A stretch of DNA of 16,834 bases from Thermoproteus sp. (GTDB taxonomy: Archaea > Thermoproteota > Thermoprotei > Thermoproteales > Thermoproteaceae): positions 1 through 16,834 of the forward strand of contig JBMFIG010000030.1 of NCBI GenBank assembly GCA_049976425.1, in the 5' to 3' direction. Each line of letters opens with the position of its first letter. Positions within the stretch are counted from its first letter, which is position 1. Of this stretch, positions 9,009-14,972 are shown in pieces. The position numbers and the translations under genes were made by a program. The notes under the pieces are model-generated. The model was not told the origin of the DNA and ran no database searches. It saw only the letters and a list, made by a program, of their open reading frames with translations.

Positions 9009-9841
9009 CTAACGCCGCGCTACCTCCAGCACGGCCTCCGCTATGGCGCCGGCGACGTCGACGCCCGTCACCCTCTGGACGTTCTTGAATTCGGGCACGC
9101 CGTTGACCTCCAGCACCTTGTAGCCGTCCCTCGACTCGACGACGTCGATCCCCGCGTACATCACGCCGACGGCCTCCGCGGCTTTGACCGAGATCTCCTC
9201 CAGCTCGCCGTCTATCTCGACGGGCTCCGCCTTGCCGCCTCTGGCCGTGTTGGTGCGCCAGTCCGACGACGAGTATCTGTATATCGCCGCGACGGCCCTA
9301 CCAGCCACCACGGTCACCCTTATGTCCCTCCCCGGCTTCTCCACGTATTCCTGCACCAGGAACTCCTGCATCGAGGACTCGAGGTGCCTCTTGTGGGCGA
9401 CTATCGACGCAAGGTCGTCGGGCGACTTGGCGAGGCTGACGAGCCTCCCCCAGGAGCCGTCCAGAGGCTTCACTATGACGGGGTAGCCGAGGGCCTCGGC
9501 CGCCTTGAGGGCGGGCTCGAGGCCGAACGCCAGAGCCGTCCTGGGCGTGGGGACGCCGACGCGTCTAAGGGCTAGATAGGTCAGGTACTTGTCGTGGGAT
9601 ATATATAGCGACTGGGCCGAGTTTATAGATACGCCGCCGGCCGCCTCGTAGGTGTGGGCCAGCGGGAGGACCTTGGACCTCCCCGCGACTCTTATAAGGC
9701 CCACGAGGCCCAGCCCGTCGGGCGCGGCGAGGTTCTCGGCGTCTACAAGCCTCACGGAGGCGTTGCGCCTCTTTAGCGCGTCTAACAGCAACCGCTCGTC
9801 GAGCCTCAGCAGGTCGTAGACGAAGTCGATTTCCCCGACAT
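9009..9841 (-). CDS. lysX: LysX alpha-aminoadipate--LysW ligase (RimK/ATP-grasp family); needs a -1 frameshift near codon 3-4
   Basis: KPLDGSWGRLV, VQEYVEKPGRDIR, AIYR, WRTNTARGG and EVNGVPEFKNV motifs (NV suggests LysX rather than ArgX-type GF). The conserved N-terminus IDFVYDLLRLDERLL has no in-frame start before an upstream TAA. ATG 9841, 28 nt after TTATAAA, is out of frame (span 833 nt = 3n+2). Confidence 0.88.
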
Positions 9842-9862: not shown

Positions 9863-9870
9863 TTTATAAG
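9863..9870 (-). promoter_or_regulatory. TATA box of lysX
   Basis: CTTATAAA on the minus strand; TTATAAA begins 28 nt before ATG 9841, the same spacing as other genes in the window. Confidence 0.8.
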
Positions 9871-9871
9871 C

Positions 9872-11149
9872 TTATTGTTGACAGATAGAGAGCTTCTCCT
9901 TAGCCGAGTTCCTAACCCTCTCGGGGTCGGGGGAGCCCAACACGGGCCTCCTCACGGCCTCGCGGGGGTCCGGAAGGTCGGCGGAGCCCGCCTTCACCGC
10001 CTCGGCGGTCTTGAAGTAGGCCTCTCTGAAGGGGACGCCGCTGAGCGCCAGCCTCTCCGCGGCGTCCGACGACGTCGTGGGGTACCTCTTGGCGTCTTGG
10101 TAGGCCTTGTCGCAGTTGAACCTCATGCCCTCCAGGAAGCTCCTCAACACGGCGACGCCCTCCTCGGCGGTCTTGAACACGCGCCAGAGGTGCCGCGTCG
10201 CCTCCTGGAGGTCGAGGCTGTAGCCGTACCCTATCTTTTCCTGGACCGCTAGGAGGGCCGAGGCGTCCGCCACCGCCTCGGATATACGGGCTCTCAAGAC
10301 CTCGAGAGTCACGGGGTTCCTCTTGTGCGGCATTATGCTGCTGGTAGATACGTGTTCGGCGGGCGGCTCCACGTAGCCCAACAACGGGCTGGACCAGGCC
10401 ACCAGATCGTCCACGAACCTCGAGAGCTCGGCGAGGGCCGAGGCCACGACGGACGCCGCGAGGCTTGCGAAGAAGCGGCTCGACGAGGCGTACAAAGTGT
10501 TCTCGACGACGCCGCCGAAGCCCGCCAGCTGGGCCAGCCTCCTGCGGTCCAGCGGGGCCGTGGTGCCGCCGGAGGGCCCCGAGCCTAGAGGCGACTTGTC
10601 GACGATAGGCCTAACCGCCGAGAGGGCTGAGAGGAGGTCGGACAGAAGCTCGTAGAGGGCGAGGAGGTAGTGGCCGAAGGTTATGGGCTGGGCCGGCTGG
10701 AAGTGGGTGAAGGAAGGCATGACGCAGTCGGCGTATTCCGCCGCGCGGCGCGCCGCGACGCACATGAGGCCCTTGACCTCTCTGGACAGATCGTCCATGT
10801 GGCGCAGGAGCCTCAGCCTTATGGCGGCCGCCACGTGGTCGTTCCTGCTCCTGCCGAGGCCGACCCAGCCCCCGGCGGGCCCCACCTTCCTGATGAGGTA
10901 GTCCTCGAGGGCCTCGTGGACGTCCTCGTAGCCCGGCCTCAGGAGATCCTCGACGCGGACCTCCCCCAACGCCTCGAGCACGGCCTCCCCGTCGCCCCTC
11001 GGCACAAGGCCCGCCTCGGCCAAATGGGCCGCGTGGGCCTTCATGACCTCAACCACCTCCCTCGCTATCTCGGCGTCGTCCTGGATGCTGGAGGTGTACC
11101 CGGCCACCACGTCGCTCGAGCCCCCGATCCATCTCCTGTAGAGGGCCAT
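9872..11149 (-). CDS. argH: Argininosuccinate lyase
   Basis: GRSRNDHVA, MPSFTHFQPAQPITFGH and SSIMPHKRNP (fumarase/ASL signature); TATTTATA 27 nt upstream. Confidence 0.96.
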   Translation of the reverse strand: MALYRRWIGGSSDVVAGYTSSIQDDAEIAREVVEVMKAHAAHLAEAGLVPRGDGEAVLEALGEVRVEDLLRPGYEDVHEALEDYLIRKVGPAGGWVGLGRSRNDHVAAAIRLRLLRHMDDLSREVKGLMCVAARRAAEYADCVMPSFTHFQPAQPITFGHYLLALYELLSDLLSALSAVRPIVDKSPLGSGPSGGTTAPLDRRRLAQLAGFGGVVENTLYASSSRFFASLAASVVASALAELSRFVDDLVAWSSPLLGYVEPPAEHVSTSSIMPHKRNPVTLEVLRARISEAVADASALLAVQEKIGYGYSLDLQEATRHLWRVFKTAEEGVAVLRSFLEGMRFNCDKAYQDAKRYPTTSSDAAERLALSGVPFREAYFKTAEAVKAGSADLPDPREAVRRPVLGSPDPERVRNSAKEKLSICQQ

Positions 11150-11245
11150 GTGGGCCCGGAGCCCCGGCTATAAATACGCGCCGCCTGCCAATATATTATC
11201 GAAAATAGCGCGAAAGACTTATATATGTCAAATGTCGTAGAGGCG
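11150..11245. promoter_or_regulatory. Divergent argH/carA promoter region
   Basis: TATTTATA (minus strand, 11169-11176) for argH; GAAAGAC-TTATATA (BRE-TATA-like, 11212-11225) for carA. Confidence 0.78.
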
Positions 11246-12321
11246 ATGTCCCAGGGGCGAACCACAGGGCCTACCTCGTCCTCGAAGACGGGACAGTCCT
11301 AAAAGGCAGGGCGTTCGGCGCAGAGAAGACGGCTGTCGGCGAGGTCGTCTTCACGACCGCCGTCGTCGGCTATCCGCAATCCATCACGGACCCCAGCTAC
11401 AAGGGGCAGATACTGGTCTTCACCCACCCGCTCATCGGCAACTACGGGGTCTCGGAGGACCAGTACGAGTCCGACGGGCCGCAGGCCGAGGCCGTGGTCG
11501 TCCACGAGGCGACGCGGCCGAGCCACTACAAGGCGGTCATGTCCCTCGACGAGTGGCTGAAGGCTTCCGGCGTGCCGGGGATAGAGGGGGTGGACACGAG
11601 GGCTCTCGTCCTCAAGCTGAGGGAACACGGCGTCATGATGGGGGCCGTCGGCCAGGAGCCCCCCGACGAGTTGCTGGAGAAGGTGAGGAAGTCGCCGAAG
11701 TACGACGAGGTGAACTACGCCTTGATGGTCTCGCCTAAGGAGCCCGAGGAGCTCGGCGACGGGAAGATCTGCGTGGGGGTCGTGGACTGCGGCGTCAAGA
11801 GGAGCATACTGAGGGAGCTCGTCAAGAGGGGGGTCAGGGTCTTGAGGGTGCCTTGTCTGAGGTGGGAGCTGGCGCTCAAGTGCGACGCGGTGCTCTTCAG
11901 CCCAGGCCCCGGCAACCCCAACCTGCTGGATAGGGTGGCAGAGGGAGTCAAGGCGGCGGTGGAGATGAGGCTCCCCGTAATGGGCATATGTCTAGGCCAC
12001 CAAGTGGTGTCCAAGGCGCTCGGCGCGAGGCTGTACAAGCTGAAGTTCGGCCACCGCGCCTCCAACAAGCCGGTCAGAGACTTGGCCTTCACCGGCAAGA
12101 CCTACATAACCACGCACAACCACGGATACGCTGTCGATCCGGCCGGGAGCGGGCTGAGGCCGTGGGCCGTACAGCCCGACGACGGCACCGTGGAGGGGCT
12201 CTACCACCCAGACCTGCCTATCCTGACGACACAGTTCCACCCAGAGGCGGGGCCAGGCCCGAGAGACACGACGTGGGTATTCGACAAGTTTCTAAAGATG
12301 GTCGGAAACGGCCTCCGCTAG
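11246..12321 (+). CDS. carA: Carbamoyl-phosphate synthase small (glutaminase) subunit; needs a -1 frameshift near codon 4-5
   Basis: The frame of ORF 11494-12321 extends upstream as RAYLVLEDGTVLKGRAFGAEKTAVGEVVFTTAVVGYPQSITDPSYKGQILVFTHPLIGNYG (canonical CarA N-terminus) with no in-frame ATG/GTG/TTG after an upstream TAG. ATG 11246, 27 nt after TTATATA, is out of frame (span 1076 nt = 3n+2). Catalytic GICLGHQ and QFHPE are intact. Confidence 0.93.
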
Positions 12322-12599
12322 CCCCACATCTCCCTTGTTGTTAGGTATTTCCTCAGCGTCTCCGGGTCTATTGCGCATCCGTTGTTGTTTAGCCATTTTT
12401 GGAGCATTGTCAATATCAGCTCTGCGTTGTGTCTTCCCACCAGCGTCGTCAAGACGTCGTAGGTCCTCCAAGGCTCCTCCAGAAGAACCTTGTCGAAAGG
12501 GTAGCCCAAAGCCGCAAGAGACTTGAAATGGAGAAGGCCTCTAAGAGAGAAATCCAAAGAACCGTAAAAACGAGCCAACAAAGACCGAGTGAGACACAT
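12318..12599 (-). CDS. Small hypothetical protein, possibly DUF3227/NitrOD-like helical domain
   Basis: 93 aa with LLHFKSLAALGYPFDKVLLEEPWRTYDVLTTLVGRHNAELIL pattern; lower GC than flanks; TTTTTAT about 29 nt upstream. Family call is from recalled pattern only. Confidence 0.6.
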   Translation of the reverse strand: MCLTRSLLARFYGSLDFSLRGLLHFKSLAALGYPFDKVLLEEPWRTYDVLTTLVGRHNAELILTMLQKWLNNNGCAIDPETLRKYLTTREMWG

Positions 12600-12660
12600 A
12601 GAAGAATGGCCGAAGTCTAGGATAAAAATTTTATGTTATATTTAGTGTGTCTAGCGGAAT

Positions 12661-12715
12661 ATCCGCCCCCGTTTCTAGTCCGAAATACGTATCGGGCCGG
12701 ATCTCGGCGGCGGAT
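12661..12715. repeat. Long imperfect inverted repeat (hairpin) in the intergenic region upstream of fusA
   Basis: ATCCGCC(12661-12667) pairs with GGCGGAT(12709-12715), CCG with CGG, and GTCCGA(12678-12683) with TCGGGC(12692-12697), around an 8-nt loop. Confidence 0.6.
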
Positions 12716-12749
12716 TAAATGTTTTTATATCGATGCCTCACTGCCTCGC

Positions 12750-14972
12750 ATGTCCAGCGTCGTCAGGATAGTCGAGAAGCAGCTGGACGAGATCTTGGCC
12801 ATAGCTAGGAACCCCGCCCAGATACGGAACGCCGGCACCCTCGCCCACGTGGACCACGGCAAGACAACCACGTCCGACTCGCTCCTCATGGGCGCCGGCC
12901 TCCTCTCGCCGAAGGTGGCGGGCAAGGCTCTTGCGATGGACTACGTCGAGATAGAGCAGTTGAGGCAGATGACGGTCAAGGCGGCCAACATATCGCTGTA
13001 CTTCGAATACGGCGGCAAGCCGTATCTCATAAACTTCGTCGACACGCCGGGACACGTCGACTTCACGGGACACGTCACGCGATCCCTCAGGGTCATGGAC
13101 GGAGGCCTCGTCGTCGTCGACGCCGTGGAGGGCGTCATGACGCAGACCGAGACCGTGGTCAGACAGGCGCTGGAGGAGTACGTGAGGCCCGTCCTCTTCA
13201 TCAACAAGATAGACCGCTTGATAAAGGAGCTTAGGCTCTCGCCGCAGGAGATCATGCAGAGGATACTGACAATAGTGAAGGAGTTCAACTCCCTTATAGA
13301 CATGTTCGCCCCGCCCGAGTTCAAGGACGCGTGGAAGGTGGACCCGGGCAAGGGCCAGGTTGCCCTCGGTTCGGCCCTACACAAGTGGGGCGTGACCATA
13401 CCCATGGCCCAGAAGACCGGCCTCAAGTTCAGCAACATCGTCGACGCATACGAGAAGGGCTACGTGGACAAGCTGGCGACCGACTACCCGCTCTACAAGA
13501 CCCTCCTGTCGATGATAATTGAGCACGTCCCGCCGCCCAACGTGGCCCAGAAGTACAGGATACCGAGGCTCTGGAGAGGCGACCTCAACAGCGAGGTAGG
13601 CAAGGCCCTCCTCGAGGCGGACCCCAACGGGCCCACGGTCATTGCGGTCAGCAAGGTCAACGTGGACCCGCACGCCGGCCTCATCACGACCGGCCGCGTC
13701 TTCTCGGGGACCATAAGGGAGGGCGACGAGGTATACATAATCGGCGCCAAGTCCAAGAGGAAGGTCCTCCAGACCTACATCTACATGGGCCCGTCCCGCA
13801 TAGTGGTGCCCTACATGCCGGCCGGCAACATAGTGGCGTTGCTAGGCACCGACGACGCGAGGGCCGGCGACACCATCGTGGCGGCCAACTTCAGCAACAT
13901 ACCGCCGTTCGAGCGCATGAAGTACATATCGGAGCCGGTGGTCACCGTGGCGATAGAGCCCAAGAACCCCGCCGACCTGGCCAGACTTGTGGAGGCCCTC
14001 AAGGAGCAGGTCATCGAGGACCCGACCCTCGAAGTAAAGATAGACCAGGAGACCGGCCAGATACTGCTGTCGGGCGTCGGCACGCTCCACCTGGAGATAG
14101 CCACGTGGATGCTCAAGGAGAGGACCAAGATAGACTTCACCGTGTCGCAGCCGTTGATAAGGTTCCGCGAGGCCGTTAGGGCCAGATCCGACGTGTTCGA
14201 GGGCAAGTCGCCCAACAAGCACAACCGCCTCTACTTCTACGTGGAGCCTCTCGACGACACGACGATAGAGCTCATAGCGACGCGGGAGATAACCGAGGAG
14301 ATGGACCCGAGGGACCGCGCCAAGATATTGAGGGAGAAGGCCGGATGGGACACGGACGAGGCGAGGGGCATCTGGGCCATAGACGACCGCTACTTCAACG
14401 TCCTCGTCGACAAGACCTCCGGCATACAGTACCTCCGCGAGATCAGGGACTACATAGTGCAGGGATTCCGCTGGACCACCGAGGCGGGCCCGCTGGCCCA
14501 GGAGCCGATAAGAGGGCTCAAGGTCGTGTTGACCGACGCCGTAGTCCACGAGGACCCGGCCCACCGCGGCCCCGCCCAGATAATGCCCGCCACCAAGAAC
14601 GCCATATTCGCCGCCATCCTATCGGCGAAGCCGACCCTCCTGGAGCCCCTCCTGAAGCTCGACATCAAGGTGCACCCGGACTACATAGGCGCCATCACGT
14701 CGGTCCTCAACAAGCATAGGGGCAAGATACTGGACATGACCCAGGAGGAGTACATGGCCATGATAAGGGCCGAGTTGCCGGTCCTGGAGTCCTTCACCAT
14801 AAGCGACGAGCTACGCGCGGCCGCCGCCGGCAAGGTCTTCTGGTCCATGCAGTTCTCCAGATGGTCGCCGGTGCCCGAGGCGATGCTGGCCGACCTCGTG
14901 AAGCAGATACGCAAGAGGAAGGGCCTCAAGGAGGAGATACCGAAGCCCACCGACTTCATCGAGGCCCTCTAA
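12750..14972 (+). CDS. fusA: Archaeal translation elongation factor 2
   Basis: AHVDHGKTT, DTPGHVDF, NKID and the diphthamide loop HEDPAHRGPAQI; true start ATG 12750 (MSSVVRIVEK), 28 nt after TTTTTATAT. Confidence 0.98.
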   Translation: MSSVVRIVEKQLDEILAIARNPAQIRNAGTLAHVDHGKTTTSDSLLMGAGLLSPKVAGKALAMDYVEIEQLRQMTVKAANISLYFEYGGKPYLINFVDTPGHVDFTGHVTRSLRVMDGGLVVVDAVEGVMTQTETVVRQALEEYVRPVLFINKIDRLIKELRLSPQEIMQRILTIVKEFNSLIDMFAPPEFKDAWKVDPGKGQVALGSALHKWGVTIPMAQKTGLKFSNIVDAYEKGYVDKLATDYPLYKTLLSMIIEHVPPPNVAQKYRIPRLWRGDLNSEVGKALLEADPNGPTVIAVSKVNVDPHAGLITTGRVFSGTIREGDEVYIIGAKSKRKVLQTYIYMGPSRIVVPYMPAGNIVALLGTDDARAGDTIVAANFSNIPPFERMKYISEPVVTVAIEPKNPADLARLVEALKEQVIEDPTLEVKIDQETGQILLSGVGTLHLEIATWMLKERTKIDFTVSQPLIRFREAVRARSDVFEGKSPNKHNRLYFYVEPLDDTTIELIATREITEEMDPRDRAKILREKAGWDTDEARGIWAIDDRYFNVLVDKTSGIQYLREIRDYIVQGFRWTTEAGPLAQEPIRGLKVVLTDAVVHEDPAHRGPAQIMPATKNAIFAAILSAKPTLLEPLLKLDIKVHPDYIGAITSVLNKHRGKILDMTQEEYMAMIRAELPVLESFTISDELRAAAAGKVFWSMQFSRWSPVPEAMLADLVKQIRKRKGLKEEIPKPTDFIEAL

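Follow-up and report, generated by a model that had tools for sequence, protein, structure and literature searches.

How is CarA, the small subunit of carbamoyl-phosphate synthetase, made from a reading frame that has no start codon where the protein should begin? The question is raised by the carA locus of a 16,834-nt stretch of Thermoproteus sp. DNA (assembly GCA_049976425.1, contig JBMFIG010000030.1; hereafter the window), which is contig 30 of a 96-contig, 1.84-Mb draft genome estimated to be 99.4% complete. Reading of the sequence places an ATG at 11246-11248, followed by TCC, CAG, GGG (11255-57) and CGA (11258-60), and the frame that it opens, MSQGRTTGPTSSSKTGQS, is terminated by TAA at 11300-11302. 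The CarA frame lies in -1 relative to this ATG, is open from 11209 to TAG 12319-12321 and offers GTG 11494, which would give a 275-aa product, as its earliest ATG, GTG or TTG. We find it very probable that CarA cannot be made without a -1 recoding event, and hungry-codon -1 frameshifting acting as amino-acid-specific attenuation is probably the best explanation of what the sequences contain. The carA case, picked out by a first-pass annotation of this DNA, appears from comparison of genomes to be one instance of a family-wide system that serves many amino acids and that looks previously undescribed in archaea. The elements of the locus, in window coordinates, are as follows:

11219..11226, plus strand: TATA-like box TTATATAT of carA, its first T 27 nt before ATG 11246
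11246..11248, plus strand: 0-frame initiation codon ATG, offset by +1 from the CarA frame; identified in the sequence and matched by an ATG in 29/29 genomes
11246..11302, plus strand: short 0-frame open reading frame (ORF) of 18 codons, MSQGRTTGPTSSSKTGQS, ending at TAA 11300-11302; the product if no shift occurs
11254..11260, plus strand: shift and sensor heptamer G_GGG_CGA, invariant in 29/29 family genomes, with variable flanks
Within the heptamer, plus strand: P-site GGG 11255-57, able to re-pair with GGG 11254-56; A-site sensor CGA 11258-60; first codon of the -1 frame GCG 11257-59
11254..12321, plus strand: CarA reading frame, 355 codons and the stop TAG, 358 aa after the shift, assigned from Pfam domains and relatives
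11269..11493, plus strand: 75 CarA codons, under purifying selection, before GTG 11494, the first canonical in-frame start

The frame opening at 11209 encodes the CPSase small-chain domain (Pfam PF00988, residues 23-147, E 1.2e-50) and a GATase domain (PF00117, residues 191-364, E 1.1e-42), and its product contains GICLGHQ and FHPE, which we take to be the catalytic Cys and His motifs of the CarA GATase domain. The protein thus has the make-up of the CarA class, a CPSase small-chain N domain joined to a class-I glutamine amidotransferase domain with catalytic Cys and His. Among named proteins in the databases, those nearest to it are the CarA proteins of Thermoproteus (93% and 88% identity) and of Pyrobaculum (~72%); relatives are 53-99% identical. 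Because the small-chain domain occupies residues 23-147, initiation at GTG 11494 would leave out the greater part of the N domain. Slipping by -1 on G_GGG is predicted to join M-S-Q-G to A-N-H-R-A-Y-L-V-L-E-D-G in a protein of 358 aa. The first-pass annotation had placed the ATG, the G run (11254-11257), CGA, TAA and GTG 11494 exactly where we find them, and had proposed this 358-aa product, beginning MSQG and with its catalytic Cys and His intact, to which frame, Pfam matches and motifs all conform.

We compared carA in 29 genomes of the family, nine from the window genus, 18 from a Pyrobaculum-like genus and two from a third genus, several of them assembled as single contigs. GGGGCGA, with GGG aligned to the CarA frame, was present in all 29, as was a 0-frame ATG located 6, 9 or 12 nt before the GGG codon (two to four codons upstream of the heptamer). 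The seven bases were invariant and the preceding codon varied (AAG, CAG, GTG, ACG, TTG or AGG); the third positions of GGG and GCG were likewise invariant, and neighbouring codons changed synonymously. A G precedes GGG in every genome, so that the P-site codon can re-pair perfectly one base upstream. Overlapping 0 and -1 frames, both of them needed for the product, are thus conserved in 29/29 genomes, a regularity far outside what chance would give, with a 0-frame ORF that ranges from 8 to 26 codons. In 11 genomes a stop codon in the CarA frame stands immediately before GGGG, and there the frame change is therefore possible nowhere else; in 21 no ATG, GTG or TTG occurs in the CarA frame between the upstream stop and the conserved YLVLEDG. 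The first-pass view that carA needs a -1 shift at G_GGG_CGA agrees with all three counts, and the 5′ ends that it had proposed to compare share the GGGGCGA layout in every Thermoproteus- and Pyrobaculum-like genome.

The promoter is placed with similar regularity. Regular-expression matches and reading of the upstream sequences located a TATA-like box 26-29 nt before the 0-frame ATG in 27/29 genomes; in the window, a second ATG at 11225, in the same frame as ATG 11246, lies within this box. By the archaeal rule for the distance from TATA box to transcript start, the spacing puts the start of the carA transcript at or adjacent to the ATG, implying an mRNA that is leaderless or nearly so. The third genus differs: both of its genomes have the box a mere 13 nt ahead of the out-of-frame ATG, and the transcript is therefore expected to start at an in-frame ATG 14 nt further on; these genomes probably express carA without the shift.

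The codons that no canonical start would reach are under selection. The ratio of nonsynonymous to synonymous substitution rates (dN/dS, NG86) of 11269-11493 was 0.034-0.241 against 24 relatives, four further comparisons being saturated, so that the region upstream of GTG 11494, which the first-pass annotation had singled out for this measurement, evolves under purifying selection. Public annotations of these proteins have mutually inconsistent N termini (MYVKW..., MFIYVK..., MDVKGAN..., MEDGS... or the 275-aa truncation); they assume starts at ATA, ATT, TTG or internal sites, with truncation of up to 80 residues, and the trans-frame sequence is absent among them as the CarA N terminus. Annotators evidently met the same start problem without solving it.

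What kind of shift the site could support is constrained by its sequence. G_GGG_CGA permits re-pairing in the P site alone (GGG to GGG); CGA cannot re-pair with GCG, and the tandem-slippage pattern X_XXY_YYZ of canonical -1 frameshifting is absent at carA. No stimulatory structure, which at canonical sites lies 5-9 nt downstream, was found there either: the consensus fold of 23 sequences had -1.97 kcal/mol, four trivial pairs and no compensatory changes, and the single-sequence fold at the site was no better than shuffled sequences (z = +0.93). The carA site is therefore not of the canonical type that combines X_XXY_YYZ with a structure, both features having been looked for. Downstream of the carA leader ORF there is no conserved structure of the terminator and antiterminator kind, and the 0-frame ORF overlaps the structural gene. 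P-site-only re-pairing without a 3′ structure fits one-tRNA -1 slippage at a hungry codon. One element of the first-pass annotation fell here, namely a hairpin between TGTCCC and GGGACA that was thought to modulate the site: the pairing exists in the window and is perfect in only 2/29 genomes, other Thermoproteus-like genomes have GGCACA without a compensating change, no consensus structure emerges and the fold equals that of shuffled sequences. Across 737 ORFs validated by third-position GC content (GC3), CGA is the rarest Arg codon, with 1.14 per 1000 codons and 1.6% of Arg codons, and a low-abundance CGA isoacceptor would make a sensitive sensor.

Is carA alone in this arrangement? A whole-genome scan for GGGGCGA with a nearby upstream 0-frame ATG, a short 0 frame and a long -1 frame reduced 461 occurrences of the heptamer to seven places, four of them internal to long ORFs and three at true 5′ ends: carA, argG and an unannotated ORF that heads a LysY/ArgC-type operon. 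The argG gene starts ATG GCG AGT AAG TCG GGG CGA GAA TAA, overlapping the end of a lysW-like gene, and the heptamer with ArgG in the -1 frame was present in 26 of the 28 argG loci with a visible 5′ end (9/9 and 17/17 in the two main genera); 25 of these 26 lack an in-frame start, one also has one, and in the third genus an ordinary ATG takes the place of the device at both loci. The product of the lysW-like gene terminates in ...E-D-Y-G-E, and the TAT GGN of its Tyr-Gly supplies the out-of-frame argG ATG, 8 nt before the lysW stop. From this layout, termination and reinitiation followed by the frameshift may take place at the lysW-argG junction. The operon-head ORF (218-224 aa) lies upstream of a LysY/ArgC-type semialdehyde dehydrogenase and has a composite leader, ATG ... 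G_GGG_AAA ... G_GGG_CCA ... G_GGG_CGA, in which all three sites enter the same -1 frame; its CGA site occurs in 25/26 visible loci, usually behind G_GGG_AAA and G_GGG_CCA, and the third genus again has an ordinary ATG.

A fourth arginine locus precedes carB, which in the own genome is separate from carA, has a normal ATG and scores 1224.9 bits in a profile search (cut-off 1027). It is preceded (contig 34, 515-640; ATG 619) by a TATA box and a mini-ORF, ATG TCG GCG GGG CGA ATA TAG, whose -1 frame terminates 19 nt past the carB ATG, an arrangement that may provide frameshift-dependent translational coupling. The leader ATG TCG GCG GGG CGA is present in both examined genomes with a separate carB (the own genome and one other); among the examined genomes in which carB directly follows carA, no CGA leader precedes it.

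We then generalized the search to any G_GGG_NNN in the same setting. A loose version gave 100 hits, mostly in spurious frames. Of 124 sites, 49 passed a GC3 filter, which tells real frames from spurious ones, and a promoter-box filter then left a clean set; 20 of the 49 were submitted to NCBIfam for identification of the protein in the -1 frame, a device being defined as a 5′-proximal ATG, G_GGG, a sensor codon and the gene in the -1 frame. Of the 20, 13 were matched devices, two were ambiguous and five were false positives (TyrRS, MBL hydrolase, HerA-like ATPase, Bax1 and an amino-acid transporter), which have a real downstream start or an unaligned N terminus. HisG with G_GGG_GAG and NrdJ (with an intein) with G_GGG_GTG passed the structural screen with a codon that has no obvious link to the pathway, and their family alignments begin 27-30 residues downstream of the site. 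The remaining GC3-valid hits were judged by eye only, as internal sites or as having a nearby Met, and three short promoter-proximal leaders were dropped, there being no relevant downstream gene. The devices outside arginine synthesis in the own genome, identified by NCBIfam, are:

Homocitrate synthase: sensor AAA
LysX: sensor AAA, in the window on the minus strand
Threonine synthase (ThrC): sensor ACA
Isoleucyl-tRNA synthetase (IleRS): sensor ATT
Citramalate synthase (CimA): sensor ATC
2-Isopropylmalate synthase (LeuA): sensor CTC
Acetolactate synthase large subunit (IlvB): sensors GTC, CTC and ATC in series
Transketolase N subunit: sensors TAC and TGG, NCBIfam best match below the curated cut-off
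Dehydroquinase-chorismate mutase (AroD): sensor TAC, best match below the curated cut-off
Prephenate dehydratase (PheA): sensor TTC, best match below the curated cut-off
Anthranilate synthase I (TrpE): sensor TGG, best match below the curated cut-off
TrpB-like enzyme (TrpB2): sensor TGG
Tryptophanyl-tRNA synthetase (TrpRS): sensor TGG
Cysteinyl-tRNA synthetase (CysRS): sensor TGT

Together with the four arginine loci these make 18, and in every one the sensor codon specifies an end product of the pathway. At all 18 the site follows the start codon by 1-11 codons, and each leader ORF carries one cognate codon per end product directly after G_GGG. A rough joint probability for the codon-pathway matches is 10^-27, a figure that is only indicative, since which amino acids counted as allowed was decided with the data already in view. 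As a specificity control we applied strict criteria to GGGG and 15 other tetramers: GGGG gave 12 sites in nine loci, all of them pathway-matched, and the others gave none or one each.

The window itself contains a second device, on the opposite strand and beyond argH:

9872..11149, minus strand: argH, the gene for argininosuccinate lyase (Lyase_1 E 5.2e-41; ASL_C2 weak), which runs divergently from carA and opens with an ordinary in-frame ATG at 11149
9863..9870, minus strand: TATA-like box CTTATAAA belonging to lysX and immediately past the stop codon of argH (9872-9874), its first T (9869) 28 nt before ATG 9841
9830..9841, minus strand: lysX device, ATG (9841-9839) TCG GGG AAA, with G_GGG_AAA at 9836-9830, present in 26/26 loci of the two main genera
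9009..9836, minus strand: LysX reading frame, 275 codons and a stop, in -1 relative to ATG 9841 (TIGR02144, 321.6 bits, cut-off 275.6, aligned from residue 3)

The short 0-frame ORF of lysX terminates at TGA 9808-9806, and no in-frame start was found in the window upstream of the LysX reading frame. On the other side of carA, a 93-aa ORF without a Pfam match (12318-12599, minus strand), whose end overlaps the carA stop codon, is situated between carA and the EF-2 gene (12633-14972).

The non-arginine sites are conserved to differing degrees. Across the Thermoproteus- and Pyrobaculum-like genomes, TrpRS has ATGGGGTGG in 26/26 loci of the two main genera, LysX has ATG(xxG)GGGAAA in 26/26 (the two third-genus loci having an ordinary ATG) and ThrC has G_GGG_AC[AG] in 26/26, with G_GGG_ATT in front of it in 12/17 Pyrobaculum-like loci; for IleRS, G_GGG_AT[TC] with a 0-frame ATG occurs in 22/27. 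A Val and Leu (and Ile) series precedes IlvB in 6/6 genomes examined, one of them without the Ile site, and the device is present at LeuA (6/6) and at PheA (6/6, with TTC or TTT). CysRS and TrpE carry it in the window genus only (3/3, against 0/3 in Pyrobaculum-like genomes). In-frame starts are largely absent from the ThrC and LeuA device loci, as they are from argG (25/26). Between species the sensor codons change synonymously (TTC/TTT, ATT/ATC, ACA/ACG, GTC/GTT/GTA and CTC/CTT), and the conserved property is therefore the meaning of the codon in the 0 frame. The third genus, with ordinary in-frame ATG codons for argG, the lysY-operon ORF, TrpRS, IleRS and LysX in its two genomes, is an internal negative control that presents these genes without the device. 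Bacterial thr and ilv leader peptides contain Thr plus Ile and Val plus Leu plus Ile codons, combinations that are mirrored by the archaeal ThrC (Thr and Ile) and IlvB (Val, Leu and Ile) sites.

These observations suggest the following course of events. The carA mRNA would begin at ATG 11246, leaderless or nearly so, and the ribosome would read Met-Ser-Gln-Gly, which brings peptidyl-tRNA(Gly) onto GGG 11255-57 in the P site and the rare CGA into the A site. When charged tRNA(Arg) for CGA is quick to arrive, the 0 frame would continue and end after 18 codons, and no CarA would be made. If it is scarce, the P-site tRNA would slip one base back onto GGG 11254-56, Ala-tRNA would read GCG and full-length CarA of 358 aa would follow, so that one-tRNA hungry-codon -1 frameshifting would serve as the sensor. 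The same device, with a sensor codon fitted to each pathway, would control at least 18 loci, giving amino-acid-specific translational attenuation in Thermoproteus- and Pyrobaculum-like archaea. Serial sites would provide OR logic for branched pathways, with Val/Leu/Ile at ilvB, Thr/Ile at thrC and Lys/Pro/Arg at the lysY-operon ORF. We consider it likely that the shift at carA is ribosomal and responsive to the supply of Arg-tRNA. The wider proposal, that genome-wide codon-programmed frameshift attenuators keep biosynthesis and aminoacyl-tRNA synthetase genes out of frame on leaderless mRNAs, to be entered by a -1 slip when the end-product codon is left undecoded, as an archaeal functional counterpart, built on another mechanism, of bacterial attenuation and T-boxes, we hold with somewhat more reserve, as reasonably likely. 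The anatomy of the sites, their conservation, the lack of in-frame starts, selection on the N-terminal codons, the match of codon to pathway and the rarity of CGA are direct observations; from them we infer a ribosomal shift whose efficiency rises as the cognate aminoacyl-tRNA falls, leaderless mRNAs and start proximity that activates the site. The candidate switch responding to arginine starvation that the first-pass annotation had envisaged at carA gains strong indirect support from G_GGG_CGA at other arginine genes and from own-codon sites in other pathways.

Several observations weigh against regulation by hungry-codon slippage. A gene for tRNA-Arg(UCG) was not found with ARAGORN, BLAST or a stem-loop pattern, methods that are weak for intron-rich tRNAs: ARAGORN reported 16 tRNAs without introns and implausible hits with introns allowed, and BLAST with the tRNA-Arg(GCG) gene recovered CCG and UCU relatives and no UCG. 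If CGA lacks a good decoder, the shift could be constitutive and not arginine-dependent. Nor is G_GGG_NNN depleted inside genes, as G_GGG_CGA occurs seven times in the 737 ORFs against 3.2 expected and G_GGG_CTC 173 times against 111; the heptamer alone is therefore insufficient, and an extra determinant, either start proximity or starvation itself, is assumed. We speculate that the signal includes the early stage of elongation, at which a mostly leaderless mRNA has little or nothing upstream that could hold the frame. Pyrimidine synthesis draws on CarA as well, and control by arginine alone needs basal slippage or another source of carbamoyl phosphate. On the latter point, to which the first-pass annotation had also pointed, the 99.4%-complete genome yielded a single carA and a carbamate-kinase-like gene (contig 1, 52583-53476; TIGR00746, 337.3 bits, below the curated cut-off of 358.25) that is a possible second source. 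Finally, some in-frame start codon is found near the carA site in 8/29 loci, the -1 codon at the Trp sensors is GTG, a possible ordinary start, and at many IleRS loci an in-frame ATG lies either 8 nt upstream of the site or shortly after it, which makes ordinary or alternative initiation possible for IleRS and the Trp-sensor genes. In Pyrobaculum-like genomes IleRS has a pair of ATGs spaced by 8 nt, of which the upstream one is in frame with IleRS and the other needs the G_GGG_ATT shift, together with two TATA-like boxes ~9 nt apart (about 8-9 nt for boxes and ATGs alike); such loci may produce both a constitutive and a regulated leaderless mRNA of this essential gene. The three tRNA-Arg genes that were located (contig 37, 324-417; contig 1, 103065-103175; contig 22, 21826-21945), with anticodons GCG, CCG and UCU, bear introns, and two of them carry a second insertion in the T arm.

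How far do these points favour other explanations? A ribosomal -1 shift at G_GGG_CGA with a fixed efficiency, as a low expression setting or a tolerated accident independent of arginine, would suit a CGA codon that might always be slow to decode, the gene for tRNA-Arg(UCG) not having been located, and a site that has no 3′ stimulator to tune the shift; we think it unlikely, for a fixed ratio gives no reason why the A-site codon should match the pathway at 18 loci and change only synonymously, and it leaves multiple matching sensors (Val, Leu and Ile for IlvB; Thr and Ile for ThrC) unexplained. It is quite unlikely that no frameshift occurs and that translation of CarA starts within its own frame, at a non-canonical codon or through an internal mechanism, with ATG...GGG CGA as a regulatory upstream ORF (uORF) on which ribosomes stall at the sensor codon and so modulate access to the main start. 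The odd starts assumed in public annotations (ATA, ATT, TTG and internal sites), the main-frame GTG at Trp sensors, the frequent nearby in-frame ATG at IleRS and those sister-family leaders that are short ORFs overlapping an in-frame ATG would all accord with it; yet the main frames of 11/29 carA genes open only at GGG, no near-cognate start before YLVLEDG is conserved, starts are equally absent from argG (25/26), ThrC and LeuA, and neither the invariable G before GGG nor the exact -1 offset is explained.

Correction at the RNA level, by polymerase stutter on GGGG or by editing that adds one G and brings ATG and CarA into frame, would yield the same protein and draw on the homopolymer run found at every site. 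We judge it very unlikely, since the conserved amino-acid codon after the run, with its synonymous variation, and the invariant CGA in 29/29 genomes would go unexplained, and since known transcriptional slippage needs longer runs, mostly of A or T. That the frame break arose at the G run through faulty sequencing or assembly, or that carA is a recent pseudogene, might be suspected of a 96-contig draft with error-prone homopolymer runs, but has a negligible chance of being true: the layout is identical in 29/29 genomes, single-contig assemblies included, a related-strain metagenome contig over 11000-12300 (which may derive from a related sample and so counts for little) has nine substitutions, no indels and the same GGGG, dN/dS is 0.03-0.24 in the only carA of the genome, and the device recurs at 17 other loci. 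Both were rejected.

A related arrangement is seen outside the family. In five Vulcanisaeta/Caldivirga-like genomes of the sister family that were checked, the G_GGG device was not found at ThrC and LeuA; carA, ThrC and LeuA there have conserved 5′ leaders without G_GGG that place a cognate codon near an out-of-frame ATG. One form of carA reads ATG ATG GGA CGA GCA TGA, overlapping an in-frame ATG, and another reads ATGATTCGG, with CarA in the +1 frame and TGA just before the CarA frame; ThrC has ATG GAA AC[AC] or GAA ACA in 5/5 loci, and LeuA a conserved GATTGCTC directly after a stop. These leaders, with their other shift motifs, suggest that the principle may be older than the G_GGG motif. 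Separately, one in-frame stop was reported inside otherwise full-length matches to two carA genes (TGA and TAG) and one ilvB gene (TAA) from three genomes.

To our knowledge, archaea are without the attenuators and T-boxes of bacteria. The candidate mechanism, by which they would couple amino-acid supply to the expression of biosynthetic and tRNA-synthetase genes, covers at least ten amino acids in one organism. If it is true, hungry-codon frameshifting would for the first time have a natural regulatory role, in which a starvation error becomes a sensor, and programmed -1 frameshifts in archaea would rise from the one reported as of 2021, according to PMC8211752, to dozens of conserved sites. 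In practical terms, the annotation of CarA N termini in these genera needs mending, with the same problem probable at the other 17 genes, and thermostable enzymes expressed from database sequences may carry wrong N termini. A seven-nt sensor whose specificity can apparently be swapped by one codon could be a minimal part for amino-acid-responsive expression control in thermophiles.

Full-text literature searching, which subscription-only papers and supplements lie beyond, turned up no account of a frameshift in carA or another amino-acid gene of Thermoproteus or Pyrobaculum. The 2021 archaeal recoding review PMC8211752 and, in a term search over its first 300,000 characters, the 2016 review PMC5009743 make no mention of carbamoyl-phosphate synthetase, Pyrobaculum or Thermoproteus, and the words 'frameshift', 'carA', 'leaderless' and 'start codon' do not occur in the T. 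tenax genome paper. The single archaeal programmed -1 frameshift reported up to 2021 is that of Saccharolobus solfataricus fucA1, which, as PMC8211752 describes it, is likewise a cellular gene whose 0 and -1 frames are joined through slippage of the ribosome; it differs in its A_AAA_AAT site, flanking rare codons and putative stem-loop, and in being a single gene, shifted mid-gene, without amino-acid logic. One-tRNA -1 shifting at hungry codons was described in Escherichia coli by Gallant and Lindsley and is independent of stimulators, according to PMC8211752, and its natural role is called 'unclear' in PMC5009743. As proposed for carA, the P-site tRNA in E. coli re-pairs one base back while the A site awaits a scarce aminoacyl-tRNA, no 3′ stimulator is involved and amino-acid limitation increases the shift. 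The E. coli shift is treated as a starvation error, whereas the archaeal sites are conserved, placed at the gene start and matched to the pathway, which implies that the hungry shift has been recruited as a regulator.

In their logic the archaeal sites resemble other systems. The bacterial prfB gene, encoding release factor 2 (RF2), is autoregulated by a +1 programmed frameshift, and there too the speed with which the A site is occupied decides between early termination and a shift into the full frame, so that the product or a proxy of it is sensed; prfB differs in the direction of the shift, in a stop codon that is read by a protein factor, in its upstream Shine-Dalgarno stimulator and in being a single bacterial gene. 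Transcription attenuation by leader peptides governs the trp, thr, ilv, leu, phe and his operons of bacteria, in which cognate codons of a short 5′ ORF likewise read the supply of charged tRNA, in the same combinations (Thr and Ile; Val, Leu and Ile; Leu; Phe; Trp). There, however, the leader is a separate ORF and the output is termination of RNA polymerase through alternative hairpins, whereas the archaeal device has no conserved hairpins and a single sensor codon for each amino acid, and the ribosome that does the sensing would go on to make the enzyme. T-box riboswitches of Gram-positive bacteria control transcription or initiation by binding uncharged tRNA directly in a leader that is long and structured. 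They share with the archaeal loci a regulon of aminoacyl-tRNA synthetase and biosynthesis genes, each tuned by one specifier codon; the archaeal loci have no such leader, because their mRNAs appear to be leaderless. In fungi, the arginine attenuator peptide encoded by a uORF of CPA1/arg-2, the parallel drawn by the first-pass annotation, halts ribosomes when free arginine is present and prevents scanning; this system acts on the same small subunit of carbamoyl-phosphate synthetase, with arginine as the effector pathway, at the level of translation and at the mRNA 5′ end, and differs as a eukaryotic mechanism that involves neither frameshifting nor tRNA sensing. By mechanism, then, the closest known system is the hungry-codon shift; by logic, RF2 autoregulation, attenuation and T-boxes; and by target, the fungal arginine attenuator peptide.

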